31,270 nucleotides of DNA. Origin: an uncultured Candidatus Saccharibacteria bacterium (GTDB lineage: Bacteria; Patescibacteriota; Minisyncoccia; Minisyncoccales; CG1-02-41-26). The position numbers and the translations under genes were made by a program. The notes under the pieces are model-generated. The model did no database searches. It saw nothing but the letters and a program-made list of their open reading frames with translations, and was not told the origin of the DNA. Of this stretch, positions 1,056 to 20,958 are shown in pieces; positions within the stretch are counted from its first letter, which is position 1; each line of letters starts with the position of its first letter. Where the stretch lies: assembly GCA_964417825.1 (NCBI GenBank), contig CAYQJC010000002.1, positions 1 to 31,270 of the forward strand, written 5' to 3'.

Positions 1056-1970
1056 TCAGCAATAAGGTTTTAATTCGTCTAGTCCATAGATTTCTGCATA
1101 ACTTTTCCAAACCCCAAAGCAATATTTTTTCAACTTGCAAATTTGACATTGTTTTCCATAAACTTTAGAGGCCTTATTATAATCAAAAAGATTACTTTGG
1201 TTTTTTCTATTTTGCTGAATACATTGGTATTCCATAGAATACTCTTCAAACCCTTTTAAAAAACAAAGGGGAAATCCACAGCCAGAATTCATAAAACTAA
1301 TATTTTTCTCTTGGCAATATTTCATTGCTTGAATTACATAGGGTGCGACTTTTGACATTTTCGGAACTATCCATCTATTTTCCCAAGCCAAACCAGCTGG
1401 TTGAACAAAAGAGAAAGAAAACACATTAATATTCTTCTTTCGATCTATCTTGATTACTTTTTTAAAATTCCGATGGATAAATTTTATAGTCTCTGGTACT
1501 TGCTGATAGTTTAAACTGTTGACTAAGATATTGAAGGTAATAAAAACTCCTTGATTCTGAAGATTTTTAATTCCCTGTACTGCATGTTTAAAGCTACCAG
1601 GAGTTCTAGTTAAAGCATCAAAAGTTTTTTTATCAGAAGAATAAAAAGGAACAAAAGCATGAGTCAAACCACTTCTCCGAAGGCGTTGGGTAAAATATTG
1701 ATAACAGCAAAGCATAGCATTAGTCTGAATGCCGATTCCTTCAATACCTCTCTTTTTAGCATATTTAATTAAATTTATTAAATAAGGATTAAGGGTTGGC
1801 TCACCGCCGGTGAATAACACAACCAAATCCTTTGAGTTAGAAGATAATTCATCGATTTTCTTTTTAGCGGTAATGTAATTGAAAGAATGTTCGTCTTTCT
1901 TGCCTCGGATATTACAAAATATGCAGTTCTGATTACAACTTAAATTTAATCTTAAAATAAATTCTCGCAT
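1056..1970 (-). CDS. Radical SAM protein, HxsC-like paralog
   Basis: CNQNCIFC cluster motif, FTGGEPTL, QTNA, TRTPGSF, C-terminal FPLC...CQICKLKKYCFG. Confidence 0.85.
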   Translation of the reverse strand: MREFILRLNLSCNQNCIFCNIRGKKDEHSFNYITAKKKIDELSSNSKDLVVLFTGGEPTLNPYLINLIKYAKKRGIEGIGIQTNAMLCCYQYFTQRLRRSGLTHAFVPFYSSDKKTFDALTRTPGSFKHAVQGIKNLQNQGVFITFNILVNSLNYQQVPETIKFIHRNFKKVIKIDRKKNINVFSFSFVQPAGLAWENRWIVPKMSKVAPYVIQAMKYCQEKNISFMNSGCGFPLCFLKGFEEYSMEYQCIQQNRKNQSNLFDYNKASKVYGKQCQICKLKKYCFGVWKSYAEIYGLDELKPYC

Positions 1971-1973
1971 AAT

Positions 1974-2906
1974 TTAGGGCCTAAGAATTTTTTTAATTAT
2001 TTTATTTTTATCAACAAATACGGGATAAAGTTCTTTGGCATCATAATATTTACCCATCATATATAACCCAGCACAAATATCATTCAAGAAACAGCTTTTA
2101 CAACATTCAGCTTTGGAATATCTAAAATTTTCTACTCTGACAAATCCTTTTTTATCTAAAAAATGAATGGCCATTTCCTCTCTCTTGACAATCTTTCTGG
2201 TCTCAGTAGAGCAGTGTTCAAAACCGGTCATGTAACAAAGAGGTACTCTCTCCACTCTGAAGGTCCGACCAGTTTTTTGTAAATACTCCATAGCCCGATG
2301 TAAAGATAATTCAAAATCATTTAATCGAGGAATGGTATCGGGATTTTCAGTAGCTCTATTCATTGAAGGGTCTAAATTGTTCCAAACGAAATGCCGCAAA
2401 AATGGAAATCTTTTAGTCAGCCAGATCACGTTTTTATCAAGGTGATCAGCATTATATTTGTTAATAACAGTATTAATATCTACTGTGATTCCTCCAATCT
2501 TTTTTAAGTTCTCCAGGGCTTTTTTGATGTTGGAGAAAGAGTCATCATTCTGAGTAAGGAATCCTTGGATGTCTGGTTTAATGGAATATATGGAAAGATG
2601 AAGATGATAAAGTCCTGAATCTTTGAGAAGCTTGAGATATCCAAAATCTGCTATTTTCTGCCCGTTGGTAATGACTCTGGCATGAATTTTCTTTTTTTTG
2701 CAATAAGAAAGGAATTTTGGTAATTGAGGTGATAAAGTTGGTTCTCCCCCAGTAAAAATAACTCCATCATACCCCTTTTTTATAAAATAATTGATATCAG
2801 AAAGGCCCTCTTGGAAAGAAAGGGTTTTTTTAGTGGGAGGGTTAGAACAAAATCTACATTTCTGATTACATTTCCTTGTAACTTGAATATATCCTAAAGT
2901 AGCCAT
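1974..2906 (-). CDS. Radical SAM protein, HxsC-like paralog
   Basis: CNQKCRFC, FTGGEPTL, ITNGQ, C-terminal VPLC...CKSCFLNDICAG. Confidence 0.85.
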   Translation of the reverse strand: MATLGYIQVTRKCNQKCRFCSNPPTKKTLSFQEGLSDINYFIKKGYDGVIFTGGEPTLSPQLPKFLSYCKKKKIHARVITNGQKIADFGYLKLLKDSGLYHLHLSIYSIKPDIQGFLTQNDDSFSNIKKALENLKKIGGITVDINTVINKYNADHLDKNVIWLTKRFPFLRHFVWNNLDPSMNRATENPDTIPRLNDFELSLHRAMEYLQKTGRTFRVERVPLCYMTGFEHCSTETRKIVKREEMAIHFLDKKGFVRVENFRYSKAECCKSCFLNDICAGLYMMGKYYDAKELYPVFVDKNKIIKKILRP

Positions 2907-2909
2907 ACA

Positions 2910-3887
2910 TTAATAAGCAACATTTACTCCTAAATAGAGATACACTTTATTTTCTCTATTAAATCCGTAATCAACTCCCATAGCCGCTGGGAAAAAGGAT
3001 ATTTGTTTATAAGATTCTCTTTTATATTCTGCAAGATTTTTCTCCCTTTTTGTCGAATTTTTTGATAAAAATTTCCATTTCCTTAAGAGAATTATTTATA
3101 TCTTTTATATCCTTGAAATCATATACTTTATTAATTTTGATTGATTTAAGTGAATGTTTGCTAAATCTATACAAGATGTAGAAATGAGCGCTTTTTTCTC
3201 TGTTTAATAAAAGAAAAATGTTAATAGTGCTTCCTGTTCTTTTAGTTTTATTATTTTTGAAAAATTTATTAATGAGTTCTGGATCAAGTTTTTTGTAACG
3301 ATTATATATTTTCAGATTTTCTTCAGCTGAGGAAAAATCAACAGCAATTATCACATCCGAATCTGGATAGCCAGTTTCTTTAACTACTTTTTATGGTCAA
3401 TAGAAAAAAGCCGACAAACTTCATTGATTTTCTTTACTTTTTCTTTTTTGGAATAATCAAGAGATAATTTGTCAAAATAAATCTTTAATCTATTTGGGAA
3501 TCGCCCTTTGGCTTGTTCAAAACCAAAATATAAGCGGTATCTGTCGGTTAAAGGAAAGATAGAGAAGATTTTCTCTAAATTCTCCATATCATAAATTTTG
3601 TAAAAGGCAAAAATTTTTTTAATCTTACTACAAAACTCCTTTTTCTCCCAATATTTATCTCCAGTAGAATAACTTGAAAACCTGAACGAAGAAAATGGTT
3701 CCGAAGGATTAAATGAAAATTCGAACCACATTTTTTGACTCTTTTTTTTACAATTTTTTAACAATATATCTCTTATTTCTATTAAATTATCTCCTTGTCC
3801 TTGAAAAATTTTTTCAATTAAAAAATCCCAAATCTCCTCAAACTTTTCTTTTTGTATTGGATGTTCAGGAATAATAGCTTTGGCCAT
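2910..3887 (-). pseudogene. Stand-alone paralog of the N-terminal (predicted ABBA prenyltransferase-like) domain of 5007-6953, interrupted by three -1 frameshifts
   Basis: ORFs 3384-3887 and 3022-3354 plus unannotated 2910-3030 align colinearly with the 648-aa protein N-terminus (WFEFSF..PFSSFRF, RLKIYF, DSDVIIAVDF, LKIYN, FFPAAMGVDY..YLYLG). One added base each at 3388-3392, about 3032-3041 and 2992-2996 restores a ~326-aa ORF ending at TAA 2910-2912. Confidence 0.8.
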
Positions 3888-3923
3888 AATGATTAAAATG
3901 AATCAACAAAAATCTTTTTCTCC

Positions 3924-4532
3924 TCATTTGTCTGTAATTGGTGTATTTATATCTACAAGATTGGTTGCTATTTCAGTTATTCTAAATTTTTTTCTAATCC
4001 AAACCTCTACAATTTCATAAGCTCCAAAAAAGCAAGAGACATAAAACAAATTACCTAATAAAGTATTTTTAAAAAATGGTAAAGCCATCGAATAACACTG
4101 GAGTAATCCAGAAAAAGTTTTAGGATACCAGGGAGTAAAACCCCAGACAGCAAGATTAGTTATAAGAAAAAATAAAACTGCACCCAAAATTGAACTTCCA
4201 CAAATTGTATAGCAATTCTTATGTTTTTTTAACCAAATTCCTAAAACACTACACAAAAGGAAGCTTCCATACACAAAAACCATTAAAATTGGCCGATAAA
4301 AACCAAGAAATATATCACTAATCAGCATAGCTAAGAGGGGAGTGGTTAAAGCTATTTTTTTTGAAAAATAAACTCCTCCAAATAAAGCAATGGCAGCAAT
4401 AGGAGTAAAATTAGGGAGATGAGGAAGCAATCTTAAGCTAACTCCTACTAAAATTAAAAGCAAGGCAATCGAAAACTCTATAATTTCACCCTTTTTAGAG
4501 AGATTAATTTTTGATATAAATGTTATTGGCAT
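3924..4532 (-). CDS. DUF6580-like putative membrane transport protein (ECF S-component-like, possibly corrinoid or metal uptake)
   Basis: Multi-TM protein with LPHLPNFTPIAAIALFGG and WY...GLLQCYSMALPFFKNTLLGNLFY motifs; adjacent to a DUF4430-like gene. The substrate is inference. Confidence 0.65.
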   Translation of the reverse strand: MPITFISKINLSKKGEIIEFSIALLLILVGVSLRLLPHLPNFTPIAAIALFGGVYFSKKIALTTPLLAMLISDIFLGFYRPILMVFVYGSFLLCSVLGIWLKKHKNCYTICGSSILGAVLFFLITNLAVWGFTPWYPKTFSGLLQCYSMALPFFKNTLLGNLFYVSCFFGAYEIVEVWIRKKFRITEIATNLVDINTPITDK

Positions 4533-4535
4533 AAA

Positions 4536-4972
4536 TTAAAATGGCGACTTTTCAAATCTAAACTCTACTTTATCTCCTGGTTTTATCTCTTTTTTATCGA
4601 CTGAGACCATTGGCATTTCATTATTAACGTAATACATCCAATACTTTCCATCTTGGCCGTTTTTTTTATTTCCAATAGCTTCAATAAGAATTCCAAAATC
4701 ATAAGTTTTTATTTTTAAGGGTATGTTTAATTCCTCCGTTTTATTTTTTAATAAATCAAAGGCAGTCATGCCCTTACTGAATTCGGCTTTAAGGTTCTTT
4801 AGGCTTCCCTCCCCATCATTAATAACCAAAAAATCACCTTCTCTTGAACATTTTCTTGAGTAATTCCAATTTCCTCTTGAGAAATAGGTTGCCCAACCTT
4901 ACTAGAAAATATTAATATTACTAAGCTGCTAATAACAACGATTATTCCTATTATAATATTTACTTTTTTCAT
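4536..4972 (-). pseudogene. DUF4430 (transcobalamin-C-terminal-like) membrane-anchored protein with one homopolymer frameshift
   Basis: ORF 4536-4829 has TAFDLL, FGILIEAIG, GKYWMYYVNNEMPMVSVD..IKPGDKVEFRF. An upstream ATG at 4970-4972 gives MKKVNIIIGIIVVISSLVILIFSS (signal anchor) and joins this frame only if the A6 run at 4828-4833 changes length (+1 or -2). Confidence 0.7.
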
Positions 4973-5006
4973 TTAAACTTTGGCAATTATAAGTTTGTTT
5001 TATCTT

Positions 5007-6953
5007 TCATCTTATTGGTTTAAGGTCACTTAATCCACCACATCTTCTATACCCTTCGTAAATTCCCGGGCATACTTTCTTCCGTGAGCAAAATTGGCAA
5101 CATTTCCCTTTAATCCTTTGGCCCTCGTCGGTTCTATAAAATCTGTCCTCAAAAACTTCACTCATATACAAGATATTATTTGTCTGAAGATTGTCTTTTA
5201 AATCCGGATTATCCACTAAACAATCTGACAGACCATCAAAGCCAGTTTTTATTTTTTTAGAGATAGCGCAGTGCATAGCTTCGTTTATTGCCAAAGAGGC
5301 TTCTTTAAGCGATGGGATTAATTTATTAAAATTTTTCAAAGCTTCTCCTTTTGGCTCAACCAAAGAAAATTTAATTCGATTGATTTTGAATTCTTCTACT
5401 AAATCAACGATCTTTTTTAGGTCTTTAAGATTGAGCTTCGTAACCACCACATTTACTATTAGCTCAATCTGATGGCTAGAAAGATTTTTAAGAGCTCTCA
5501 GGGTTTGATTAAAACTCCCCGGCGTTCTGGTAATAAAATCGTGCCTTTCCGGATTTGCTGAATTTAAAGTAAGATAAACATATTTTAGATTTCTTTTTAA
5601 AAGATTCTCGGAGAGTTTTCGATAACTTAATAATCTTCCATTGGTGATTAATCCCCAAGGAATCTTTCTTTGCCAGAGGGAATTAACTACTTTAGGAAAA
5701 TCTGGATGTAAAGTCGGCTCACCACCAGAAAAAAGAATCATTTCCGCTCCAATTTGTAATGCCTGATTAATTTTGTTTATTATTTGATGAAATCGAAGAG
5801 GAGGAATATTTCTCTTATCTAAAGCATGGCAAAAAAGGCAGTTATTGTTACATTGGTATTGAATTTTTATCAAGGCTTTTTTTAAATCGATTATCTTTTT
5901 CACTTTCTCACATTTTTGATAGGTAACCTTAGAACCCAAATAGAGGTATGGTCTTCTAAAATTATTTTGAGAAAAATCAATTCCTATCGCACTTGGGAAA
6001 AAAGAATATTTGTCCACAAAATTTCTTTTGAGGATTTGCCATGAATTTTTCTCTTTTTTATTTAATTTACTAAAGAATAATTTTAGCTCCTCGGTTAAAT
6101 TTCCCATACCAGTTATTTTCTGGAACTCATAAATTTTAAAAAATTTGATTGATTCCAGTTCTGAATCTTGATTAAACCGATGAAGAAGATACCAAGAACC
6201 ACTTTTCTCTTTATTTAACAAAAGCAAATTATCAATGAGATTTTTTGATGCTTTCAGGTTATTATTTTTAAAGACCCGGGAAATGAGGTTGCGGTTTAAT
6301 TTTTTATAGTGGTTATATATCTTTAGATTCTTTAGATTTTTTGGAGAAGGGAAAAAATCAATACCAATTAAATCAGAATCTGAAAAATGAGCTATCTTAG
6401 AAATTTTTTCATTATTAAACCCAAGAATCTGACACATCTTATTAATTTTTTTTATCCATTCTTGCCTTGGACAACAATGAGATAATCTCCAAAAATAAAT
6501 TTTTAATCTAGCCGGAAATTTTCCCTTAGATTGAACGAATCCAAAGGATACCTGATATTTATCCAGAGGAAAAAGTGAAAGAATTTTTTCAAGCTTATTA
6601 AAATTATCAATTTGAAATAAATCAAAAATCTTTTTTATTTTGCTGACGAACTCCTCTTTCTCCCAATATTTATCATCACCATCGATTCTGGAACATGCAA
6701 ATCTAAAGGAGGAAAAAGGATTTGGGAGAATAAATGAGAATTCAAACCATATCTGCTTTGGGAAGATGTTATCACCCTCATCGAGAAAGATATTTCTAAT
6801 TTTTTTTAGTTTGCCTAAGCTTTCTAAATGAGCTTTTCTAATTAAAAATTCCCAAGCCTCTTCCAGAACTTCTTTCTCTACTCCTTGCTTAAATTTAACT
6901 GGTTTAATAGCTTCTAATCCTCTGTAATTTTTAAAATTTTTTATAATTTTCAT
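5007..6953 (-). CDS. Two-domain protein: predicted ABBA/DMATS-type prenyltransferase-like N-terminal domain fused to an HxsC-like radical SAM domain
   Basis: The C-terminal ~290 aa carry CNNNCLFC, FSGGEPTL, ITNGR, TRTPGSF and CQFCSRKKVCPG (radical SAM, confident). The N-terminal ~345 aa show five beta-hairpin-like motifs with FEFSF..FRF, RLKIYF and LKIY (prenyltransferase call is inference). Confidence 0.7.
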   Translation of the reverse strand: MKIIKNFKNYRGLEAIKPVKFKQGVEKEVLEEAWEFLIRKAHLESLGKLKKIRNIFLDEGDNIFPKQIWFEFSFILPNPFSSFRFACSRIDGDDKYWEKEEFVSKIKKIFDLFQIDNFNKLEKILSLFPLDKYQVSFGFVQSKGKFPARLKIYFWRLSHCCPRQEWIKKINKMCQILGFNNEKISKIAHFSDSDLIGIDFFPSPKNLKNLKIYNHYKKLNRNLISRVFKNNNLKASKNLIDNLLLLNKEKSGSWYLLHRFNQDSELESIKFFKIYEFQKITGMGNLTEELKLFFSKLNKKEKNSWQILKRNFVDKYSFFPSAIGIDFSQNNFRRPYLYLGSKVTYQKCEKVKKIIDLKKALIKIQYQCNNNCLFCHALDKRNIPPLRFHQIINKINQALQIGAEMILFSGGEPTLHPDFPKVVNSLWQRKIPWGLITNGRLLSYRKLSENLLKRNLKYVYLTLNSANPERHDFITRTPGSFNQTLRALKNLSSHQIELIVNVVVTKLNLKDLKKIVDLVEEFKINRIKFSLVEPKGEALKNFNKLIPSLKEASLAINEAMHCAISKKIKTGFDGLSDCLVDNPDLKDNLQTNNILYMSEVFEDRFYRTDEGQRIKGKCCQFCSRKKVCPGIYEGYRRCGGLSDLKPIR

Positions 6954-8368
6954 TTTTTAATCGTTTTAATCGGCTTTAAAATCTTATAGCCGAAATTGCG
7001 AATATAGTTTATATGAACACCCGGACAGCTTTTAAAATATTTACATTTCCGACATCTGATACTTTTGGTATAGTACTTTTTTAAGATGAACCAATCGGTG
7101 TATTTATAAATATCAATAAAACCTCCTCTATAGATTTCAGAAATATCACTATCCTTTTCTGTAACAATCTCGCCTTTGGGATACAGACATATGGGAATGT
7201 TTTCAATCTTAAACCCTGGGAGTTTAACTTTACTAAAAAAACTTCTTAAATTTATATCATTTTTTTTAGATTGAGATAAAAGGTGGTGATTTTCTTGAAA
7301 AAAAACAATTTTATCTCGAAATCTATAAAGTTTTTTTAAATTCCTTAAAATCCAATCTTTGGTTCTTTTATTAATGGCAATCTCAAAACATCCTTTTTGA
7401 GCAAAATTAATTTTTTTTATATCATTCTCATTTTTTATTAAAGTCACAGATTTCTTTGAAAAATCTCTTTTTGTCTCTGGATGTTTAACCAAGAGCAACT
7501 GGAAACAGAAATCTTTTAAAAAACACCATTTACATCTTTCCCCCCAACAAGGCATAAGTTTATCCTCTCTTAAAAATTTGTTAAACAAACCTTCTCTTCC
7601 CTTCACCTCATCGTATAATTTCACCGGATCCTGGATTAAATCCTCAGACCCCTCAAGATAGGGAGGAGGAAATCGGTTGGTCCAAAGATGAACTCTTGAA
7701 TCATGGGAAATCTTAAAAGCTCTTTTAAGATAAGGTAAAGCGTCTTCAATTTTGTAAAAAACTTTCTTTTTGTTTTTCCAAGCATCGCCAAAAGGAATGA
7801 TTTGTAAAAGATCGAATTCATAAACTCCAAGACCCATAAAAAATTTTATAATTTCAGGAAGTCGTCGATAATTAATTTTATTTATAACAATATCTATATT
7901 CACAATCAGCCCCTTGCAACTTAAAGCATTGATTAATCCCGTCATCGCTTGAGAGAAAGAACCCTTAACTTGACTTTGAACTTCATATAATTTTTCAGTA
8001 TGACCATGAATTGAAAAAGTAATTTCATCTACCCCCCTTTCAATGGCTTTTTTAAGAAATCCTTTGTAGCTGAACATTCGGCCATTGGTAATTATCTGGA
8101 CTTTTTTGTAACCAAGTTCTTTAGTAAATTCTACTACTTCTAGAAATTGTGGATGTAAAGTCGGCTCTCCTCCCGAAAGCACCGCTCTTTCAGCTCCGTT
8201 CTTAATTCCCTCCTTTAACTTTTCTTTTATTATCTTTAAGGGAACGAAGGTTCCATCCTGAGAGGGTCTATCCAAACAAAAAATGCACCGGTTATTACAG
8301 CACCGAGTTAACCTAACCCACTGACGTCTTTCCTGGGAAGCTTTTTCTTTCTCCAATAATCTGTTCAT
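6950..8368 (-). CDS. Radical SAM protein, HxsC-like, with an extra C-terminal Cys module
   Basis: CNNRCIFC, LSGGEPTL, ITNGR; two C-terminal Cys sets, CKWCFLKDFC and IPICL...CRKCKYFKSCPG. Confidence 0.85.
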   Translation of the reverse strand: MNRLLEKEKASQERRQWVRLTRCCNNRCIFCLDRPSQDGTFVPLKIIKEKLKEGIKNGAERAVLSGGEPTLHPQFLEVVEFTKELGYKKVQIITNGRMFSYKGFLKKAIERGVDEITFSIHGHTEKLYEVQSQVKGSFSQAMTGLINALSCKGLIVNIDIVINKINYRRLPEIIKFFMGLGVYEFDLLQIIPFGDAWKNKKKVFYKIEDALPYLKRAFKISHDSRVHLWTNRFPPPYLEGSEDLIQDPVKLYDEVKGREGLFNKFLREDKLMPCWGERCKWCFLKDFCFQLLLVKHPETKRDFSKKSVTLIKNENDIKKINFAQKGCFEIAINKRTKDWILRNLKKLYRFRDKIVFFQENHHLLSQSKKNDINLRSFFSKVKLPGFKIENIPICLYPKGEIVTEKDSDISEIYRGGFIDIYKYTDWFILKKYYTKSIRCRKCKYFKSCPGVHINYIRNFGYKILKPIKTIKK

Positions 8369-8380
8369 GATAAGATAAAA

Positions 8381-9271: not shown

Positions 9272-9293
9272 AAAATCTTCCGTGTCTCAGCTT

Positions 9294-13356: not shown

Positions 13357-13383
13357 ATTTTTGATTATTTATTATCTAAAATT

Positions 13384-13392: not shown

Positions 13393-13431
13393 AAAAGAAG
13401 GAAAAAACATAAATCTTAAATATATGAACTT

Positions 13432-13476: not shown

Positions 13477-13566
13477 TAAGATATGTCCGAGATCAAGAAT
13501 GCCTACCTCTCATCTCTTTTTAAAGACCCCTTAGGTGGATAATATCATATGAACCAGTACACAATC

Positions 13567-13595
13567 TTGACATTTATTTTGATTTACGCTATAAT
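13567..13595 (+). promoter_or_regulatory. Perfect-consensus sigma70 promoter
   Basis: TTGACA (13567-13572), 17 nt, TATAAT (13590-13595); 5' UTR hairpin 13606-13637; SD AAGGAGG 13658-13664. Confidence 0.75.
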
Positions 13596-13669
13596 CTTCA
13601 TTGGAGATTGAGGAAATATAAAACTTACTCCTCAGTCAAATTAACAATTAAAGTAAAAAGGAGGGGAAA

Positions 13670-14182
13670 ATGAAAAGGATCTTGATTGCAATCTTGGTAG
13701 CTCTACTAGGAATAGGGCTTGCTACTCCTGCTTTCAGTAATACTCTATCTCTACAGGAGATGATTACTGTAAAAGAGATCCAATATCCTTATTACTCAGT
13801 GAGCTGGAGGAAAGAGACCTTATTCAGAGAATTAACTTTCTCTTTCTGCCCAGAAGCAGTGAGGTATCAAAGACAAGGTACTCAACTCTATATCATTTTA
13901 GGCACTTTCTCCACTCAAGTGGCAATAGAAGAAGCACCAAGGGAATTAACTCTCAAACCCAAAAAGATAATGGTGGATGTAACTCTAATTCTGAAATTGA
14001 GATTCGGAAGAGAAGAAGATTTAGAGAATTTCCTGGAAGCTCTGAAAGAAATAACTCAAAAGGAACTAAGAGGAAAAGTTGTATGCAAAGCCTACCCGGA
14101 AGTGAAAGTAGATATTGCCCGAGTATTCAGAACCAACTTACAGTACTTTGCTACAGGAATTCTTTACCTTAAAGGACTCTGA
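13670..14182 (+). CDS. Secreted hypothetical protein
   Basis: 170 aa with signal peptide MKRILIAILVALLGIGLATPAFS, strong SD, own promoter and terminator. Confidence 0.8.
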   Translation: MKRILIAILVALLGIGLATPAFSNTLSLQEMITVKEIQYPYYSVSWRKETLFRELTFSFCPEAVRYQRQGTQLYIILGTFSTQVAIEEAPRELTLKPKKIMVDVTLILKLRFGREEDLENFLEALKEITQKELRGKVVCKAYPEVKVDIARVFRTNLQYFATGILYLKGL

Positions 14183-14186
14183 AACT

Positions 14187-14225
14187 AAAAAACCCGTCTA
14201 TGCTTTCCCAAGCTAGACGGGTTTT
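14187..14225. terminator. Bidirectional intrinsic terminator
   Basis: aaaacccgtcta...gctt-tccc-aagc...tagacgggtttt: a 12-bp outer stem with A/T tracts on both sides, between convergent genes. Confidence 0.85.
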
Positions 14226-14294
14226 GATATATGAATTAGGTAAAACTTAAAGAGATTAAAAAAAATTTCTTCAACTAACTTAAAATCCCTCAGC

Positions 14295-14843
14295 TCAATT
14301 TTTAGAGCCAGAGGGCTTTTTATTTGATTTTTTCTTTTTCTCTTCTTCTTCCAACTTTTCAAGCGCCTTTAAATAATGGCGGCTTAATTCAAAAGCTGGA
14401 GGTGAAAATTTTTGGATTTGTTCCATCCGTTTTTGGAAAATTTTCAAGATTCTAATGGTATCAATAACACTAAGATGATAGTCGATAAATCTCCGAATGG
14501 CAAATATTGTCTCTCGTATCTCTATTTGTCTACCAACTTCCTCATTCCAAGCAGAAGCAAGAATAATAAATTCATTAACTAAATCTTTAAGAATCGGGGT
14601 GAGGGGTTGCTCAATGACAATTCTTAATAAAAGATTTAATATTTGTTTTATTTGGCTTTTTTCTTCTTCATTAACCCTAACTTTTCTTTTTTTTCGTTTT
14701 TCTTTCAATTGTCCGCCCATTAGCTCAACAGTTTTCTTGACTAAATCTAATTTCTCTTGGGTGAGAACGGAGTAAATCTGAATATGGCCCAAAATCTCCT
14801 TTAGTTTTTTAATATTTGGTTGATAAATAATTTTATTCTTCAT
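14295..14843 (-). CDS. Hypothetical helical protein coupled to the radical SAM pair
   Basis: 182 aa; start overlaps the upstream radical SAM stop by 11 nt; FSPPAFELSRHYL segment; no recognised family. Confidence 0.7.
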   Translation of the reverse strand: MKNKIIYQPNIKKLKEILGHIQIYSVLTQEKLDLVKKTVELMGGQLKEKRKKRKVRVNEEEKSQIKQILNLLLRIVIEQPLTPILKDLVNEFIILASAWNEEVGRQIEIRETIFAIRRFIDYHLSVIDTIRILKIFQKRMEQIQKFSPPAFELSRHYLKALEKLEEEEKKKKSNKKPSGSKN

Positions 14844-16161
14844 TAATAAATTCTTCTAGTAGATTTAGAGAAACCTTTTTATCTTTATTTAATTTCTCAA
14901 AAATTCTATCATAGATTCCTAATCTCTTATATGTTTTTATCATAGTTAAAATTTTAGCATGTTCAAGTTGGCAAACGGTGGGAATAGGTGAAAATAAATC
15001 TCCGGTTGTTTCGTATTGAGCCCCGAGACATCCCCCAGAACACAAATACTTTAAAGGGCAACTTTCACATATCGGAGCGGTTTTAATATCGAAGGTAATT
15101 GAGCCTATAAGTAATTCTGGGTTCTTACTTTCTATGCCGATAATTCTGCCATTTTTAACAATAAACCTTCCCAATTCAAATGGGGAATAAGATGTCCTAT
15201 GGCAAGGAATAAATGTTAAATCGCCTAATCTTAAATGAAAAGTGGATTGAAGAGAACAGCCTATTCCCCTACCAACAGTTGTTAAGGGAGAATGTAAAAT
15301 GTTATAACCTTTCTTATTGAATACGAAGTCGAGGAAATTGCCTTTGTTTTTTTGGCAAGGAAAATAGTAAGTCCATTCAATCAGAAACTCTATAAATCTC
15401 ATAAACTCTTTAATCTGTTTTTTTGACCACTCAACATTTCTGACTTCTAGTAAATAAATATTAAAAAAGGGAATGTTAAATTTTTTAAAGTTTTTTTGAA
15501 ACCAAAGAAAATTTTTCTGCCAATTCTCAATAAGTACAGAATAAATCATTGGATGGAATCCATAACAATACTTTTTATTAAAAGCGAAAACTCTCTCATA
15601 ATATTCATTATTCCGTTTTTCTTTTCCTGTCTTAAATGGTCTGTTTTTCTCACAATATTTTCCATCAAAGGAAGCTGATAAAATAATAGGCATTTCTAAT
15701 TCTCTTGAAGCTTGGATAAGTTCCTCAACCCGCTTAGTTTTTTCTGGCGAAAGCAGAAAGGTGTAATTGGTAGGAATAACAATGCTCTTTGGCCGATTTT
15801 TTACTGATTTAAACTTATTCAAAATTAGCTCTAAAGCCTTAAATCCTAGTTCCTGCGAGAAAGGTTCACCCCCAAAAATCTCAATTTTTGGATAATATCC
15901 CTTCCGAATAAGCCAGTCTAAAAACAGCGAGAGATTTCTTAAAAGAATTTTTGGGCTTTGAATTTCTATTGGATAAAGTTCTTCACCATAATTAGCCACA
16001 TAACAATATTTGCATTTTAAATTACAAGAAGTATTTAAGAAAATCTCTAACTGTTCAAAGTTAACCAAATCTTCCTTCCAACCCTTGAAAAAAGTGTGGT
16101 TTAAAAATGAATTTACTAATTTGTTATTTTCTTTTTGATAAAGTTTTATTTTTTCTGCCAT
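14833..16161 (-). CDS. Radical SAM/SPASM peptide maturase (non-HxsB/C type)
   Basis: CNLKCKYC, FGGEPF, SPASM-type GIGC..PCHRT..CESCPLKYLCSGGC..VC. Confidence 0.85.
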   Translation of the reverse strand: MAEKIKLYQKENNKLVNSFLNHTFFKGWKEDLVNFEQLEIFLNTSCNLKCKYCYVANYGEELYPIEIQSPKILLRNLSLFLDWLIRKGYYPKIEIFGGEPFSQELGFKALELILNKFKSVKNRPKSIVIPTNYTFLLSPEKTKRVEELIQASRELEMPIILSASFDGKYCEKNRPFKTGKEKRNNEYYERVFAFNKKYCYGFHPMIYSVLIENWQKNFLWFQKNFKKFNIPFFNIYLLEVRNVEWSKKQIKEFMRFIEFLIEWTYYFPCQKNKGNFLDFVFNKKGYNILHSPLTTVGRGIGCSLQSTFHLRLGDLTFIPCHRTSYSPFELGRFIVKNGRIIGIESKNPELLIGSITFDIKTAPICESCPLKYLCSGGCLGAQYETTGDLFSPIPTVCQLEHAKILTMIKTYKRLGIYDRIFEKLNKDKKVSLNLLEEFINEE

Positions 16162-17519
16162 TCTATATATTCTTTTAAAATTTCTTCAAAAGCACCGTTA
16201 GCAAAAAGTCTTATCATTGAGATGGGAGAAAAATGAATAACTCCAGTATTTAAGACATTTTCTGTAGGACATCCAAGGGCTAGATTTAAAAAAATAGCAA
16301 ATAAAATTGCCAAATCTTCATCTAAATAGCATTCGCTTGCTTGACCAACTAAAACAAGCTCCTGAAGCATTGCTAATGTGTAGCTGATTTTTAATCTAGT
16401 AAAATCGTGGTAGTTTCGCCCTACATAAAAAAGTCTTATTTTTTCTTCTAGTTTATTTATATCTACTATAAACTTATTTTTAATTAAATCTAAATTTCCT
16501 TTTTCAAACAAACTTACATCCCAATTTTTTATTTCTTCATTTTTTAAAATACTCTCAATGTACTCTTGATTATTTAAAAAGAAAGAGCGATGGCAAATAT
16601 GCAAATCATTGTCTATTCCCACTCCAAAATTACTATCTCCTCCGCTACAGGTGAACATATAAGGTTTGATAAATAACTCATTCTGATAGTCAAATAATCT
16701 CTTTAGGCGATAAACATAGGTATTTAAAGAACTTTTGACATACTTCCAATGTTGATTTTTTTTATTTTGCTTTCCTAAAATCCTTAAATTTCTAAAGAAA
16801 ATTGCTAATTCTTTCCCGTCAACTGAGGTATATTTCCCAGGGCAAACTAAAGTTGGAGTACAACTAGTTAGCAAACTTACTTTTTGATTTTTGTTCTTTC
16901 TTTTAAATTCTTGGAAAATTTTCTCAAAGAAATCGAAATATTTTCTTAATCTTTCCTTTTTCTTATTCAAGATCTTAATATTGTCAATTGATAAAGTTGG
17001 CTTTAGCGAAAATCTAACATTTAGATTGGTTAAGTTTATGGTATTTAATTTGCTGATTAAATAAAAAAAATTTTCAGTTATTTTTTTTGTTGCTCCAGGA
17101 CCTCTATTGATATCGGTAATAAAATCAGGACCATCTATGGAAATTTGGACTTTAAGATTAATTTTTTTCCTGGTTTTGGTTAAGGCTTTGATAAAATTCA
17201 AAATAATCTCCGGGTTGGTCAAGAGATTGGTCGAAAAAGAGATTCCCACCAGCTTAGGGAAAGTTTTGAAAAGAAAAGATAAAGATTTTTGAATTTTTTT
17301 TAGGGTTAATGTCGGTTCGGTCCCCCAGAATCCTAAATATTGAAGATTCTGACCGTAAGCTCTTTTTAAGGTATCGAGATACTCTCTCTGGTCAAGGTTA
17401 GTTATTATCTTATCTTGGAGAAATCCCATCTGGGAAGTTTTTGGGATATAACAATACTTACAGTTTAAAGGACAGGTAGCTGAAGAGAATAACTCTGTTG
17501 AAACCATTCTTTTGTTCAT
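16146..17519 (-). CDS. Radical SAM peptide maturase with a reduced SPASM/Twitch-like tail (non-HxsB/C type)
   Basis: CPLNCKYC, WGTEPTL, SIDGP, FTCSGG..HICHRS..LGCP; first gene after precursor 2. Confidence 0.85.
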   Translation of the reverse strand: MNKRMVSTELFSSATCPLNCKYCYIPKTSQMGFLQDKIITNLDQREYLDTLKRAYGQNLQYLGFWGTEPTLTLKKIQKSLSFLFKTFPKLVGISFSTNLLTNPEIILNFIKALTKTRKKINLKVQISIDGPDFITDINRGPGATKKITENFFYLISKLNTINLTNLNVRFSLKPTLSIDNIKILNKKKERLRKYFDFFEKIFQEFKRKNKNQKVSLLTSCTPTLVCPGKYTSVDGKELAIFFRNLRILGKQNKKNQHWKYVKSSLNTYVYRLKRLFDYQNELFIKPYMFTCSGGDSNFGVGIDNDLHICHRSFFLNNQEYIESILKNEEIKNWDVSLFEKGNLDLIKNKFIVDINKLEEKIRLFYVGRNYHDFTRLKISYTLAMLQELVLVGQASECYLDEDLAILFAIFLNLALGCPTENVLNTGVIHFSPISMIRLFANGAFEEILKEYIEWQKK

Positions 17520-17560
17520 CGTTTTAGTTTTTCGATTAGCATTAACAATCTTCAGGGTTA

Positions 17561-17995
17561 TTAAGCAAGCAGATTGAGATTTGTATAATCGTCAGTATAA
17601 TTGGTACTAAGAGCAACTGTTTTTTCAGCAGACTTATCACTCAGACAGTGTCCACCTAAATCATCGCTGAAATATATTGAATTATCGGCAGACTTATCGG
17701 CAGAACATCCACCATTATCGTGAGACCCATGAGAACCATGGGAGCCATGGGAATTGTGGGAACTGTGATTACTGTGAGAACCGTGGTCTCCTCTGGCTCC
17801 TGAGTTGTGGAAGGCGCTTGAGTGGGGGGTGGAACTTGAATGGCCAGCCCAGATATTCTTGGCTCCAAAAATAGTAGCCAAGAGAGTTAAACCTAGTCCA
17901 AGCTTGAGGGCATTCTTTTTACTAATCTTTCCTTCTTCTGAAGAGAGGAAAGATTTAAGATTCTTTTTGATTTTGGGGAGGTTTTTCTTTTTCAT
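17561..17995 (-). CDS. hxsA: His-Xaa-Ser repeat precursor peptide 2 with an acidic Cys-containing C-terminal extension
   Basis: Same leader as hxsA1 (PKIKKNLKSFLSSEEGKISKK), IWA-G, HSS..HSS..HNS GARGD HGS HSN HSS HNS HGS HGS HGS HDN, then GGCSADKSAD...GGHCLSDKSAE. Confidence 0.85.
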   Translation of the reverse strand: MKKKNLPKIKKNLKSFLSSEEGKISKKNALKLGLGLTLLATIFGAKNIWAGHSSSTPHSSAFHNSGARGDHGSHSNHSSHNSHGSHGSHGSHDNGGCSADKSADNSIYFSDDLGGHCLSDKSAEKTVALSTNYTDDYTNLNLLA

Positions 17996-18010
17996 ATTTT
18001 GAGTACTAAA

Positions 18011-18841
18011 TTAAAAACCAGCCCATTGGTGACAATAATTATCTCTAATTAATTTTAACCTATTTTCGCAAAGTATTTTCGGATTAGAAATAAAATATAA
18101 GTTACAAATTGTTTTAAGAGAAGGGTTTTTTATTGTCTCACAATTCTCTTCCTTTTTACTACCAAGGGCGAAGAAATATTGCCAAATATCAAGGCATTTA
18201 TCTTTAGTTGACTGGTCTAAAAAATTATCACAATATTTTTTCTCTTTAGATATTACAACCTGACACAAAAAATAGAGAGGCTTTCCTTTTTCAGTCAAAG
18301 GGAAAAGCTGGGAACAGATATTAGTATCTTCTTGAAGATAGGCTCGACAGAAATTTCTGCAATGTTCCTCAGTAATCTTTTCATTAAGGGAATCCTCCTC
18401 CTTTCTCCCCACAAACTCTACACAACTCTGAATGGCTCGATTATTACACTCGCCTTTTTTCTCTACTTCTTCAAAAAAATTATAAGTATAAAAACACCTC
18501 TCACATCCTAGAAAATATTTTGAACCATATAATTGCTCACAAACTTTTATCTCCCTTTCTTGCACTGCTTTACAGGTAATATATTCTGCAAATAAATTGT
18601 TTAATTTATTGCTTAATTCAGTTGGTAAAAGGTGCTTTTTTAACTCCCGGTTTATTACCTCGTTTAAATTAAAATTATTATAACAATATTCTTTTCTCTT
18701 CTCAACCACCTCTAAGGGGACCTCGAAAGAAATCTTTTCTTGTTTTTCCTTCCTTTCTTTTATCATCAGAAAGTACACTATTAAAATCGAACTACCAATC
18801 AGTATTATGAGAATAATTGTAGTTTTTATCGTTTTTTTCAT
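18011..18841 (-). CDS. Cys-rich, N-terminally membrane-anchored protein (family member 4)
   Basis: Likely start is the second Met (18841; the ORF track start 18865 overlaps hxsB). TM IILIILIGSSILIVYFL, 17 Cys, C-terminal RDNYC; ends 15 nt before hxsA2. Confidence 0.8.
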   Translation of the reverse strand: MKKTIKTTIILIILIGSSILIVYFLMIKERKEKQEKISFEVPLEVVEKRKEYCYNNFNLNEVINRELKKHLLPTELSNKLNNLFAEYITCKAVQEREIKVCEQLYGSKYFLGCERCFYTYNFFEEVEKKGECNNRAIQSCVEFVGRKEEDSLNEKITEEHCRNFCRAYLQEDTNICSQLFPLTEKGKPLYFLCQVVISKEKKYCDNFLDQSTKDKCLDIWQYFFALGSKKEENCETIKNPSLKTICNLYFISNPKILCENRLKLIRDNYCHQWAGF

Positions 18842-18846
18842 ATTAT

Positions 18847-20274
18847 CTATCCAGCCCCTAACCACTTATCAAATACCTTTTTTATCTTTTTGTTTTGTAG
18901 TCTCTGAAAGAGGTAATCTAACATTCCTTTGTTTAATCTACACCTATCGTTATTGGGCAAAGAAGCAAAAAGGTTGCCATAAAGAGCATAATTTAGAACT
19001 GGACAGACCCCGCAGTAGGGTTTGTAACAGCAATAGTCACAAGGAAGGTTATCAAGACAAGAAGCTATACAAGCTGCTTTCACAGCATCATGAGAAACTA
19101 TTTCTTGATAACTATTTCTCTTCACATTGCCAATCTTAAATACATCATCTTCCAACATCCTTCCCTCATCGCAAGTAAAAACATCTCCATTGTAATTATA
19201 GGAGAGCTGGCCAATGCCTGCTCCACAGGGAGAACGCAGATCCAGATAACCTGGGTCTTGGTCAGTCAAAATTTTACGAAGCATAACCACCGCTCCCCTC
19301 TCAGAAATTTTTTTCTTTTTAAAATTTAATTCAATGATATAATCCATTGCTTCTCTCCAGAATCTTAAGAATTCCTCAGTTGAGTAACCAATTTTATCTT
19401 TAAGTTTCCCTGAAAGTCCTAAATAACTGAGGGGTCTTAAATGAATAGTTGAAAAACCCCACTTTAGGTATTCATCGATAATTTCTTTGGGGTATTTCAA
19501 TGAATAGCGAGATATAGTTAAAAGAGCATTAACTCGGTTTAATTTTGGATGTTCTTTTCGATAATTATTTATTCTCTTAACCCAGTAGACAGTTTTTTCA
19601 TAGCTATTTCCTCCGATAAGAATTCTGTTTTTGTTGTGAAGTTTTTCTGGGCCGTCTAAAGAAGTACAAAGCCCTACTCTGTTTTTAAAAAGAAATTTTA
19701 ATTTTTTCTCATCCAAAAGTGAAAAATTAGAAACTAGGGTAATCCATAAATCCTTTTCTCTCTTTTTATTTTTTTCTCTAGCATACTCAACAATAAACTT
19801 AACAGTTGGCCAATTAACTAAAGGCTCTCCTCCCTGAAATTCAATAGTTATATTTTTGTTTGGACTACAAAATATCGTATCTACCACCTTGCGAGCAGTT
19901 GGAATATCCATATCATAGCCCTTCTCTTCTAAACTCCGCGAGCTGACCTGACAATAGATGCATTTATGATTACATCTTAGAGTGACCACGACAATGTGTA
20001 AGCTTGGCCCTTGGGCTAAGAAGGCATTTCGAGAACGATATTTTTCTATTAAATTATCAAAGTCTAAGTAGTCTCTGATAAATTCTCTAGATTCCATTTT
20101 CTTGTAGAGTTCTGTCTTTTTGTCTAAGTTTCCTTCCAAAAATCTTATAAACGATTTCTCAGTTAAAAAAATATACTCACCAATGTCATTGGTAAGTAAA
20201 TATTTCCTCCCAAATTTTTTGAACCGGCAAAATCCTATTTTATCTAAGTTAATTTTATCTAAATCAATGTTCAT
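18847..20274 (-). CDS. hxsB: His-Xaa-Ser system radical SAM/SPASM maturase HxsB
   Basis: N-terminal KYLLTNDIGEYIFL region, PSLHIVVVTLRCNHKCIYCQ, IEFQGGEPL, SPCGAGIGQLSYNYNGDVFTCDEGRM, CDYCCYKPYCGVCP; HxS peptide and HxsD neighbours. Confidence 0.85.
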   Translation of the reverse strand: MNIDLDKINLDKIGFCRFKKFGRKYLLTNDIGEYIFLTEKSFIRFLEGNLDKKTELYKKMESREFIRDYLDFDNLIEKYRSRNAFLAQGPSLHIVVVTLRCNHKCIYCQVSSRSLEEKGYDMDIPTARKVVDTIFCSPNKNITIEFQGGEPLVNWPTVKFIVEYAREKNKKREKDLWITLVSNFSLLDEKKLKFLFKNRVGLCTSLDGPEKLHNKNRILIGGNSYEKTVYWVKRINNYRKEHPKLNRVNALLTISRYSLKYPKEIIDEYLKWGFSTIHLRPLSYLGLSGKLKDKIGYSTEEFLRFWREAMDYIIELNFKKKKISERGAVVMLRKILTDQDPGYLDLRSPCGAGIGQLSYNYNGDVFTCDEGRMLEDDVFKIGNVKRNSYQEIVSHDAVKAACIASCLDNLPCDYCCYKPYCGVCPVLNYALYGNLFASLPNNDRCRLNKGMLDYLFQRLQNKKIKKVFDKWLGAG

Positions 20275-20470
20275 TTTTCATTTCGGCTAAAACATAATTA
20301 GAAAATTCGTCCTTTATTATATTTTTAACATCTTTATCTATTTTACTAAGCTCTACTTTTATTTTATTCTTTTCCTCTTTAGTTCCAAACTTAGCCAAAT
20401 TCTTATAGGCCTTGATCGCTTTTTTTACAGCACTGAGTTTGTAAAATCCCTTATTAAAAACAATAGTCAT
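20264..20470 (-). CDS. Short HxsD-like protein
   Basis: 68 aa, FNKGFYKLSAVKKAIKAY...DEFSNYVL, parallel to INPQLYPLEAIYGASYVF...REFLNEIL in 20506-20958; overlaps the hxsB start. Confidence 0.65.
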   Translation of the reverse strand: MTIVFNKGFYKLSAVKKAIKAYKNLAKFGTKEEKNKIKVELSKIDKDVKNIIKDEFSNYVLAEMKNEH

Positions 20471-20505
20471 AGATTCTTAAGAAATAATTTCTGAGTTTTA
20501 ATCTT

Positions 20506-20958
20506 TCATTTTGACTTTTTAGTTTTGACTTTTGATTTTTTACCGTACTTCTCTTCCCAGGGAATAGCAATTCCTAAAGGGTCTTTCTCCCAATCTTCCT
20601 CTGTCCTTCCTTGTTCCAATTCTTCTTGACCTATGGCGGCCAGAAGTGCTTGACCTACAATATATTCTCTAATTTTTTGATTGTGTTTTGAGATTTTCTC
20701 TCTTAGGGTATAATTCAAAATTTCATTTAAAAACTCTCTTGCTAACTCCTCCAATTTCTTTTTGGTCATTTTCTCCTTACCTTTAATAAAAACTTTCACC
20801 TCTTTTTTAGGATTTCCATCCAAAAACAAATAAGCTCGGTCAATGAAAACATAACTTGCTCCATAGATTGCTTCTAAGGGATAGAGTTGAGGGTTGATTT
20901 TAACAGTAATTCTGTTTTCTTTTTTATTAAGTTTAAAATTTACTTTTTTATGACTCAT
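20506..20958 (-). CDS. hxsD: His-Xaa-Ser system protein HxsD
   Basis: EFLNEILNYTLREKI..IREYIVGQAL resembles the HxsD LLNDYxLRE signature; located upstream of hxsB. Confidence 0.75.
   Translation of the reverse strand: MSHKKVNFKLNKKENRITVKINPQLYPLEAIYGASYVFIDRAYLFLDGNPKKEVKVFIKGKEKMTKKKLEELAREFLNEILNYTLREKISKHNQKIREYIVGQALLAAIGQEELEQGRTEEDWEKDPLGIAIPWEEKYGKKSKVKTKKSK

Follow-up and report, generated by a model that had tools for sequence, protein, structure and literature searches.

A two-cassette His-Xaa-Ser gene cluster rich in radical SAM genes in a putative Patescibacteria genome fragment

Gene content of the Hxs cluster

The DNA analysed here (the window, 31,270 nucleotides of contig CAYQJC010000002.1) carries a His-Xaa-Ser (Hxs) gene cluster, in which two precursors with repeated H-x-S units are encoded together with HxsB, HxsD and numerous radical S-adenosylmethionine (rSAM) enzymes. 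The window is almost wholly minus-strand coded, and the cluster, delimited by its open reading frames (ORFs), spans positions 1056–21528 on that strand. Apart from two corrections, the parts listed in a first-pass annotation are present in their proposed positions on the minus strand. Read in the direction of transcription from position 21528, the cluster begins with a gene for a 180-residue protein, followed by HxsD, an HxsD-related protein, HxsB, a Cys-rich protein and precursor 2. Two PapB-like rSAM genes, a gene of unassigned function (182 residues), a 170-residue gene on the opposite strand, a Cys-rich protein and a Cys-rich remnant come next, and lead to an A24-like peptidase, a further Cys-rich protein, precursor 1 and three HxsC-like rSAM genes, the third of which is fused to a domain with a predicted ABBA-prenyltransferase fold. 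Towards position 1056 the cluster ends with a DUF4430/DUF6580 gene pair, a broken second ABBA copy and two further HxsC-like rSAM genes. The core, precursor and rSAM genes are:

20506–20958, minus strand: HxsD (TIGR03976, 64.2 bits against a cut-off of 50)
20264–20470, minus strand: HxsD-related small protein, 68 residues (NF038315, 70.1 bits against a cut-off of 41)
18847–20274, minus strand: HxsB radical SAM/SPASM maturase (TIGR03978, 514.2 bits against a cut-off of 370; Radical_SAM and SPASM matches in Pfam)
17561–17995, minus strand: precursor 2, 144 residues (HxsA3 55.6 against 65 and HxsA4 51.1 against 55, just under both cut-offs)
16146–17519, minus strand: rSAM weakly resembling PapB/cyclophane maturases, 457 residues (Radical_SAM 33.9 bits; PapB NF047865, E 4e-10)
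14833–16161, minus strand: rSAM/SPASM protein, weakly PapB-like, 442 residues (SPASM TIGR04085 28.1 against 27; PapB E 1e-14)
9406–9660, minus strand: precursor 1, 84 residues, a typical HxsA4 (NF038313, 61.2 bits against a cut-off of 55)
8381–9271, minus strand: HxsC-like rSAM type 5, as a rule the rSAM that comes first after hxsA (HxsC4 185.2 against 500, HxsC 108.6 against 267.9)
6950–8368, minus strand: HxsC-like rSAM type 4, 472 residues with a C-terminal extension (best NCBIfam matches HxsC4/HxsC)
5007–6953, minus strand: fusion of a predicted ABBA-fold domain (residues 1–346, nucleotides 5916–6953) and an HxsC-like rSAM (residues ~357–648), assigned with AlphaFold2 (AF2), Foldseek and NCBIfam
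1974–2906, minus strand: HxsC-like rSAM type 2 (HxsC 91 bits)
1056–1970, minus strand: HxsC-like rSAM type 1 (HxsC4 109 bits, HxsC 90 bits)

HxsB, HxsD, the HxsD-related protein and the HxsA4 precursor all pass their curated cut-offs, which bears out the proposal of an elaborated Hxs pathway; HxsD also contains FLNEILNYTLRE, a variant of the LLNDYxLRE motif. Both proposed precursors are present, one above the HxsA4 cut-off and one just under both cut-offs, and a six-frame search of the window yielded neither a third leader nor another H-x-S run. Precursor 1 consists of the leader P-x-I-K-K-x-[IL]-x-x-F-L-x-S-E-E-G-K-I-S-K-K, a short hydrophobic region, an H-x-S run and a C-terminal Trp. Precursor 2, the leader of which is 52% identical to that of precursor 1, likewise combines an HxsA leader with a hydrophobic segment and H-x-S repeats, and continues into a 50-residue acidic extension, in which the pattern GG(H)-C-x-x-D-K-S-A-[DE] occurs twice, as read from the sequence. 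The export-type N-terminus carried by both precursors agrees with the earlier suggestion of an exported or surface peptide.

The claim of five HxsC-like rSAM enzymes stands in so far as HxsC4 and HxsC are the two best NCBIfam matches for every one of them, while none meets the cut-off of either model. The five are mutual paralogs with 25–34% identity. PapB is the best NCBIfam match of both rSAM enzymes that follow precursor 2, with 54 and 39 bits where the cut-off is 340, and the enzyme encoded at 16146–17519 contains the motif CPLNCKYC. The likeness of these two enzymes to the ranthipeptide maturases of the PapB family is thus weak, with a SPASM domain in one of them and two Cys-x-x-Asp repeats in the neighbouring precursor 2.

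Comparison with the classical Hxs system

A 2022 paper credits Haft and Basu with the HxS motif and with the putative rSAM maturases HxsB and HxsC. The HxsABCD system of E. coli has been characterised as an antiphage system that blocks the entry of phage DNA (Li et al. 2026, Nat Commun, PMC13128918). There, HxsB, HxsC and HxsD are all required for a non-canonical N-terminal processing of HxsA, a change of +8 Da lies within one HxS repeat of HxsA, and the mature protein is periplasmic and anchored to peptidoglycan; 99.7% of the classical systems are found in Pseudomonadota, and 99.6% arrange their genes as hxsD-hxsB-hxsC-hxsA (PMC13128918).

The window shares with classical HXS (TIGR03976–03979) an HxsB and an HxsD above cut-off, HxS repeats, an export signal at the N-terminus, HxsC-lineage rSAM enzymes and the lack of a dedicated exporter. 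As first proposed, the ORFs scanned with domain and family models revealed neither an ABC transporter nor a C39 peptidase domain. The two differ in gene order (D, D_rel, B, Cys-rich, A, C-like in the window, D-B-C-A in the classical system) and in host, which is Patescibacteria for the window and nearly always Pseudomonadota for classical HXS. Moreover, the window holds five diverged HxsC-like paralogs where classical HXS has one HxsC, and adds the HxsD-related protein, the A24-like peptidase, the Cys-rich membrane proteins, the ABBA domain and the PapB-like rSAM enzymes. Its precursors have 84–144 residues and a long conserved leader, whereas classical HxsA possesses a signal peptide, a domain that binds peptidoglycan, and five HxS repeats. 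In line with this difference, the precursors match only the HxsA3/HxsA4 models and not the classical HxsA model (TIGR03979) at E ≤ 0.01, and contain no Pfam domain.

A closer counterpart is the NCBIfam set HxsA3, HxsA4, HxsC4 and HxsD_rel (NF038309, NF038313, NF038332 and NF038315). Precursor 1 and the 68-residue protein pass HxsA4 and HxsD_rel, respectively, while the window rSAM enzymes miss the HxsC4 cut-off and precursor 2 just misses both precursor models. HxsA3, HxsA4 and HxsC4 are annotation names only, with no mention in the literature searched. On the evidence of its genes, the cluster is a two-cassette member of this HxsA3/HxsA4 branch, a widespread yet undescribed variant of the known Hxs system.

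Related loci and rSAM types

The comparison set comprised an Omnitrophota metagenome-assembled genome (MAG), other contigs from NCBI, JGI and ENA, and 80 metagenomic loci fetched with the trimmed leader alignment; 39 loci were analysed and are given here by number (L005 and so on). The elaboration is not peculiar to this genome: Omnitrophota MAGs and dozens of metagenomic loci have the same core, some with more rSAM genes. The recurring order is HxsD, HxsD_rel, HxsB, HxsA and then several HxsC-like rSAM genes, from two to five or more, in some cases with a homolog of the 180-residue protein ahead of HxsD, an A24-like peptidase, or, between HxsB and HxsA, either a secreted or anchored Cys-rich protein or one more SPASM rSAM. 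In almost every related locus, hxsD and hxsB are separated by the HxsD-related gene. The 20 loci with 6 kb or more of downstream sequence have 0 to 5 HxsC-like genes each (median 3), and one 30-kb contig carries ~15 rSAM genes around HxsD, HxsB and an HxsA4 precursor. A layout with many rSAM genes is the norm for the HxsA3/HxsA4 subtype and not special to the window genome. Several sister loci additionally carry B12-binding rSAM genes.

The HxsC-like paralogs of the window have orthologs elsewhere. Type 5 is present in most loci (63% identity in Nealsonbacteria, 47% in L008), type 4 has orthologs in L008 (50% identity), L010 (54%) and L093 (480 bits), and type 2 in L010 (60%) and L093 (401 bits), while the rSAM part of the fusion at 5007–6953 is 55% identical to a stand-alone ortholog of 305 residues in L008. 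The closest matches of type 1 are domains of triple-fused rSAM proteins of 1045–1058 residues in L041, L078 and L083. Five HxsC-like orthologs from other loci score 159–181 against the HxsC4 cut-off of 500. The identity to orthologs elsewhere (47–63%) exceeds that between the paralogs within the window (25–34%), which argues that the HxsC-like genes are ancient specialised types and not the outcome of a local expansion. An ortholog of the PapB-like enzyme at 14833–16161 (442 bits) adjoins hxsD-hxsB in L048.

In L041, L078, L083 and L088, single proteins of 1045–1058 residues consist of three tandem HxsC-like rSAM domains (e.g. 12613–15780 in L078), which suggests that the paralogs encoded separately elsewhere work as a complex. 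Type IV pilus genes directly flank two of the Hxs loci: a set with pilM/N/O, pilB, pilT, pilC, a pilin and a prepilin peptidase in L005 (38–8155), and N-methyl-domain pilins, PilM, PilO and a secretin in L010 (12194–20255). Canonical pilins lie near only 3 of the 39 loci.

The precursor family

A search with the leader profile recovered 762 protein clusters, the named ones being "His-Xaa-Ser repeat protein HxsA4" from Omnitrophota and Elusimicrobiota MAGs; no leader of the HxsA4 type was found in IMG/VR viral contigs. The layout, computed on 120 family members, is constant, with a Lys-rich start followed by L-P-x-I-K-K-[DEN]-I-K-x-F-L-L-S-E-E-G-K-I-S-K-K, in which the Pro is conserved in 95% and the Phe in 100% of the members, along with the S-E-E-G-K block. 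The leader block is followed by K-[IL]-G, the last residue of which (+14) is Gly in 88% of the sequences and Ala in a further 10%. The hydrophobic stretch past this residue spans only ~10 residues, and Ala is enriched at +29 and +31, giving an Ala-x-Ala-like region. The core has 27–105 residues (median 51) with a median of seven H-x-S units and runs of up to 21, and half of the members (60 of 120) end in GQW or GWC; GGWC endings were also seen.

A long form of HxsA, with ~476–559 residues, the same leader, a very long H-x-S run and an uncharacterised C-terminal domain of ~330 residues, is encoded in L005 (11538–13031; Ca. Nealsonbacteria CP179887.1) and at ~10 other loci. Because this ~500-residue form shares the leader, the family evidently matures proteins as well.

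Promoter and terminator scans of the window gave no better results than shuffled sequence. Directly 3' of precursor 1 and ahead of the first rSAM gene lies a terminator-like hairpin (9386–9403, minus strand), which could act as an attenuator that tunes the ratio of precursor to enzyme, such sites being as frequent in shuffled sequence.

A predicted prenyltransferase-fold domain

Two prenyltransferase domains had been proposed in the window. The fold of the one fused to an HxsC-like rSAM was upheld by AF2 and Foldseek, while the second copy is broken by two frameshifts:

2913–3887, minus strand: second ABBA-like gene with two frameshifts (ORFs 3384–3887 and 3022–3354, third-frame tail 2913–3071)

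Searching with the fused domain by tblastn matched this copy to residues 25–183, 183–324 and 293–345 in frames -3, -2 and -3, so that it is complete at the DNA level despite the frameshifts. The identical split was present in a separate assembly, which is itself 100% identical to the window and hence no independent check of it.

The fused domain has no match in Pfam, NCBIfam or the PDB sequences (the latter queried with a single sequence and a three-row profile), and a word-indexed search of 5.8 billion proteins returned only a fragment of the domain itself. An exhaustive hidden Markov model search, in turn, recovered 36 representatives of the family, mostly stand-alone proteins of 300–340 residues, one of them a fusion in reverse order with the rSAM first and the ABBA domain second. 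Two remote homologs match Trp_DMAT (PF11991) at 17.6–18.2 bits against a cut-off of 25, and the window protein does not match it. The AF2 model, based on an alignment of 29 sequences, displayed five alpha-alpha-beta-beta units with a predicted local distance difference test score (pLDDT) of 85.2 and a predicted template modelling score of 0.85; it superseded an earlier, poor model from three window sequences (pLDDT 49.7), the Foldseek matches of which were merely suggestive. The top 50 Foldseek matches in the PDB were all ABBA prenyltransferases (E 3e-9 to 4e-6, TM-scores 0.5–0.67), including the RiPP (ribosomally synthesised and post-translationally modified peptide) enzymes PirF, PagF, PatF and LimF, the last of which geranylates His in a cyanobactin pathway, as well as FunA, a prenyltransferase of free histidine. 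The ABBA-prenyltransferase fold of the extra domain is thereby confirmed at the level of the predicted structure. Several invariant or near-invariant residues (R84, K151, Y153, K211, Y213, K270, K273 and Y338) resemble the K-x-Y diphosphate shield, with the Lys, Arg and Tyr side chains placed on strands. An ABBA fold can nevertheless be inactive, as in PatF.

The known ABBA prenyltransferases (DMATS, IptA, CloQ, NphB, PagF, PirF, LimF and FunA) have the ten-stranded PT barrel in common, which is also predicted here, and those of the cyanobactins are likewise set in a peptide pathway. In contrast to these, the window family shows only ~10–14% identity to them and is fused to, or embedded among, rSAM enzymes. 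In each of the four genomic contexts examined, the family member sits within an array of seven to twelve rSAM genes; HxsD and HxsB are present in two of the four, one of which also has an HxsA4 precursor. The family (~315 residues, no Pfam model) thus appears to be a new, unannotated accessory of multi-rSAM Hxs systems.

A JGI fragment (P0001, 248 residues) joins the ABBA domain straight to the C-terminal end of the rSAM, without residues ~320–545, the rSAM core; relative to the window gene at 5007–6953, it is either a population variant or a misassembly. A gene of ~374 residues between hxsB and hxsA in the long-form loci was considered as a carrier of the ABBA domain and rejected, as it encodes another SPASM-type rSAM.

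The A24-like peptidase, Cys-rich proteins and other accessory genes

The remaining genes of the cluster that bear on the fate of its product, or accompany it, are:

20986–21528, minus strand: 180-residue protein with an N-terminal hydrophobic segment (no Pfam or NCBIfam match)
18011–18865, minus strand: Cys-rich membrane-anchored protein 3, 17 Cys (paralog of 12559–13356; 26% identity, E 4e-21)
14295–14843, minus strand: 182-residue protein, function unassigned (no family match)
12559–13356, minus strand: Cys-rich membrane-anchored protein 2, 16 Cys, many ~11–12 residues apart
12098–12403, minus strand: remnant of a fourth Cys-rich paralog, ~80 N-terminal residues (tblastn)
10709–11857, minus strand: A24-family (GxGD-type) aspartic peptidase with a ~200-residue insertion (Pfam PF01478, 24.3 bits, below the gathering threshold of 26.5)
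9682–10641, minus strand: Cys-rich membrane-anchored protein 1 with 12 Cys, immediately upstream of precursor 1 (assignment based on composition and location)
4536–4829, minus strand: DUF4430 protein with a transcobalamin-like small binding domain (PF14478, 58 bits)
3924–4532, minus strand: DUF6580 integral membrane protein (PF20221, 180 bits)

The A24-like protein of the window contains TDIRYGKIKNK, SAGDAKL and FPFSPFLF, i.e. two catalytic Asp motifs and a C-terminal motif, which we take to be A24 hallmarks. Full-length orthologs were found in 6 of the 39 loci, together with a weaker and shorter match (314 residues) in L093. In an alignment of six distinct sequences, comprising the window protein and the five distinct ones among the six orthologs, D-[IL]-[KR]-Y-G-K-I-x-N-K, LWSAGDAKL and KTFPFxPFLF are largely conserved. 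The ortholog adjoins hxsA in L010, L049 and L051, and in the loci that carry the gene HxsA is short to medium in length (~100–240 residues).

Three of the four Cys-rich membrane proteins claimed earlier were retained. The fourth is only a remnant, as tblastn matched residues 31–110 of the protein at 18011–18865 to 12215–12463 and found nothing beyond. Protein 1 shows no BLAST similarity to proteins 2 and 3 at E 1e-3. Weak homologs of protein 3 with 10–15 Cys occupy the slot between hxsB and hxsA in L007, L068/L080, L087 and L091, the one in L007 having a signal-peptide-like N-terminus. Just upstream of Hxs-type clusters, DsbD/CcdA-type thiol-disulfide membrane proteins are encoded in L007 (2096–3269) and L092 (164–811), in L007 along with a thioredoxin-like protein. 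Such neighbours would be in keeping with the handling of disulfides in the secreted Cys-rich proteins.

Weak homologs of the 180-residue protein are encoded immediately upstream of hxsD in, for example, L007, L012–L014, L016, L019, L022–L024, L031, L033, L064 and L065. The start of the 182-residue gene overlaps the upstream rSAM gene (14833–16161) by 11 nucleotides, which suggests co-translation. DUF4430 and DUF6580, which make up the putative uptake pair of the first pass, are absent from all 39 related loci and are therefore not part of the conserved system; the pair is probably a lineage-specific addition or a passenger. Follow-up searches with DUF6580, DUF4430 and the type 5 rSAM yielded nothing informative.

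Host assignment

Assignment to the candidate phyla radiation (CPR), which had been proposed with pnp as the test, is supported by sequence matches of housekeeping genes and of HxsB. All matches of the polynucleotide phosphorylase (PNPase) that carry a name at the phylum level are "Patescibacteria group bacterium" (61–65% identity) or "Candidatus Gribaldobacteria" (59%). The nearest HxsB, with 60% identity, belongs to Ca. Nealsonbacteria CP179887.1, a complete genome of 689 kb and the sole close match among 185,579 species representatives; the Nealsonbacteria lineage lies within the Parcubacteria group of Patescibacteria. Copies of this DNA (99.98–100% identity) were recovered from single ENA and JGI assemblies and from several Logan assemblies.

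The window is AT-rich, with a GC content of 28–41%. This content is lower in the Hxs cluster (0.28–0.36 at 1000–21000) than in the neighbouring housekeeping genes (0.35–0.41 at 21000–31270), which is compatible with horizontal acquisition.

Proposed maturation pathway and alternative explanations

The best overall explanation, and one that we consider fairly probable, is a two-cassette Hxs branch with a matured, exported and envelope-retained His-rich peptide as its product. Its separate elements deserve different degrees of trust. The identity of the system and the general logic of maturation are held with considerable confidence. According to their sequences, the two ribosomal precursors each comprise a conserved Lys-rich recognition leader of ~30 residues, a hydrophobic export-type segment and an H-x-S core, which HxsB would modify in the cytoplasm together with HxsD and the HxsD-related protein before the five specialised HxsC-like paralogs act on it. 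The two PapB-like enzymes may cross-link the two C-x-x-D-K-S-A-[DE] repeats of precursor 2. The ABBA domain fused to the rSAM may add a prenyl group, e.g. to His or the C-terminal Trp, an idea that follows from the modelled fold and is put forward tentatively.

Export and proteolytic processing, as judged from the encoded proteins, are reasonably likely. The modified peptide would be inserted or exported through the general secretion route, there being no ABC/C39 exporter, and the leader may be removed by the A24-family intramembrane peptidase at or near the conserved Gly (88%) or Ala (10%) that starts the hydrophobic segment; alternatively or additionally, signal peptidase I might cut at the downstream Ala-x-Ala-like site. 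In precursor 1, the candidate cleavage sites are Gly31 and Ala48. The product would then stay in the envelope alongside the Cys-rich membrane proteins, which are extracytoplasmic and encoded beside each precursor. For its role, the leading idea, drawn by homology alone and still doubtful, is an envelope-level barrier like that of E. coli HXS, in which the rSAM-matured periplasmic HxsA blocks phage DNA entry. An extended version would have the ABBA family dedicated to HxsA3/HxsA4 multi-rSAM clusters and lipidating the peptide at His, the C-terminal Trp or Cys, so that after A24-type release a lipid-anchored His-rich coat serves as a barrier to phage DNA or in host-cell contact in CPR and Omnitrophota; in this full form the proposal is speculative and unlikely to hold.

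A number of observations weigh against this account of an envelope-retained peptide. None of the HxsC-like enzymes meets the HxsC (TIGR03977) or HxsC4 (NF038332) cut-off, the best scores being 108.6 against 267.9 and 185.2 against 500, respectively. The Ala-x-Ala pattern of the precursors is compatible with an ordinary signal peptidase, and of the 20 loci with 6 kb or more of downstream sequence only 4 have the A24-like gene within 10 kb; it never accompanies long-form HxsA. The second ABBA copy is frameshifted, and its function may therefore be dispensable. Unlike classical HxsA, the precursors lack a peptidoglycan-binding domain, and their short, peptide-like form fits a RiPP equally well. 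Finally, neither the window nor the related loci have a defence-island context, and PADLOC returned only generic viperin-type rSAM matches in the window and no defence model.

A RiPP product had been assumed at first pass. The sole characterised Hxs system, however, matures a periplasmic antiphage protein effector (PMC13128918), and since classical HxsABCD is now known as an antiphage system, a RiPP is only one possible reading. It would be a diffusible natural product, either antimicrobial or signal, in which the leader is removed and the cross-linked His-rich peptide released, and it gains from the short precursors with their conserved leader-core design and C-terminal GQW or GGWC, from the many tailoring enzymes (among them a prenyltransferase fold known from cyanobactin pathways) and from the PapB-like enzymes that adjoin the precursor with C-x-x-D repeats. 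Nevertheless, the cluster encodes no dedicated exporter, immunity gene or C39 protease, sister loci attach the same leader to an HxsA of ~500 residues, the only characterised relative is a cell-bound effector, and a membrane-anchored Cys-rich partner is encoded beside each precursor, which together render a released peptide rather unlikely. We regard metal handling as quite unlikely, i.e. a His-rich surface peptide that binds Ni, Zn, Cu or Co as a metallophore or as a storage or buffer molecule, with DUF4430/DUF6580 importing the loaded ligand or a corrinoid. H-x-S runs of up to 21 units, the vitamin-B12-binder-type DUF4430 domain (PMC4350170) and its membrane protein embedded in the operon, and the B12-binding rSAM genes of several sister loci would all suit such a function. 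However, none of the 39 related loci has the DUF4430/DUF6580 pair, both a metal-responsive regulator and a metal transporter are lacking, and the repeats of the E. coli protein act in phage exclusion. Furthermore, Rfam gave no match in the window at the gathering threshold, and hence no cobalamin or other riboswitch ahead of the DUF4430 pair.

The presence of a dedicated A24-family peptidase, the 98% conservation of a small residue at the boundary between the n- and h-regions and the type IV pilus genes that flank the Nealsonbacteria and L010 loci could also be explained if the peptidase processes HxsA as a class III substrate and the His-rich tail joins a type IV filament. This pilin-like scheme is very improbable, as the ~10–12 hydrophobic residues past the Gly are judged too short for a pilin helix, Glu is lacking at +5 and canonical pilin genes occur near just 3 of the 39 loci; prepilin-type processing with pilus assembly was accordingly set aside on the grounds of the short hydrophobic stretch and the scarcity of pilins. 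The counter-case named at first pass, in which the rSAM enzymes belong to cofactor biosynthesis (of the MoaA, heme d1/AhbD or PQQ type) beside a minimal Hxs locus, is effectively refuted. MoaA, AhbD and NirJ models do appear among the lower-ranking matches of each enzyme, but HxsC4 and HxsC outrank them throughout, every cofactor model falls far under its cut-off, and these types of paralog keep their synteny with hxsA, hxsB and hxsD in different phyla.

The cluster is of interest since the His-Xaa-Ser system was an orphan for more than a decade and its function has just been tied to a block of phage DNA entry, in the four-gene proteobacterial form only. The branch in the window is far more elaborate and common in uncultured phyla (Patescibacteria, Omnitrophota and Elusimicrobiota). 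With its separate paralog types, triple fusions, short and long substrates, processing protease and prenyltransferase-fold family, it offers a natural dissection of the chemistry that could help to solve the +8 Da rSAM reaction. If the genome is close in size to the 689 kb of the nearest complete relative, 2–3% of its DNA is devoted to the cluster, which speaks for an important function at the surface of the cell, perhaps in defence against phages or in an episymbiotic lifestyle. What makes the system valuable is its testable chemistry, the new family with a prenyltransferase fold and the puzzle of a minimal cell that retains such a cluster.

Neighbouring genes and other observations

The only plus-strand gene of the cluster (13670–14182) divides it into two transcription blocks. 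It encodes a protein of 170 residues with a signal-peptide-like N-terminus and without homologs in the related loci, and a 12/12 match to a sigma-70-like promoter lies upstream of it (13567–13595, plus strand), although the scans overall did no better than with shuffled sequence.

Downstream, the window encodes clpP, tig, a membrane pyrophosphatase, a DksA-like gene, pnp, an NYN-domain gene and rpsO. A protein of 836 residues (25884–28394, minus strand), which has no Pfam match, consists largely of Glu/Lys/Arg-rich, coiled-coil-looking repeats, after which come a hydrophobic segment and, at the C-terminus, a domain of ~220 residues; its purine-rich coding accounts for the extreme AT and GC skew at 26–29 kb. 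At the opposite end, a gene cut by the window edge (1–930, minus strand) encodes a secreted protein with a signal peptide, internal repeats and a match to the Ig-like Rha78A N-terminal domain (PF25788, 41.5 bits); weak homologs of this protein (875 residues) are encoded upstream of the Hxs locus in L014 and L022.

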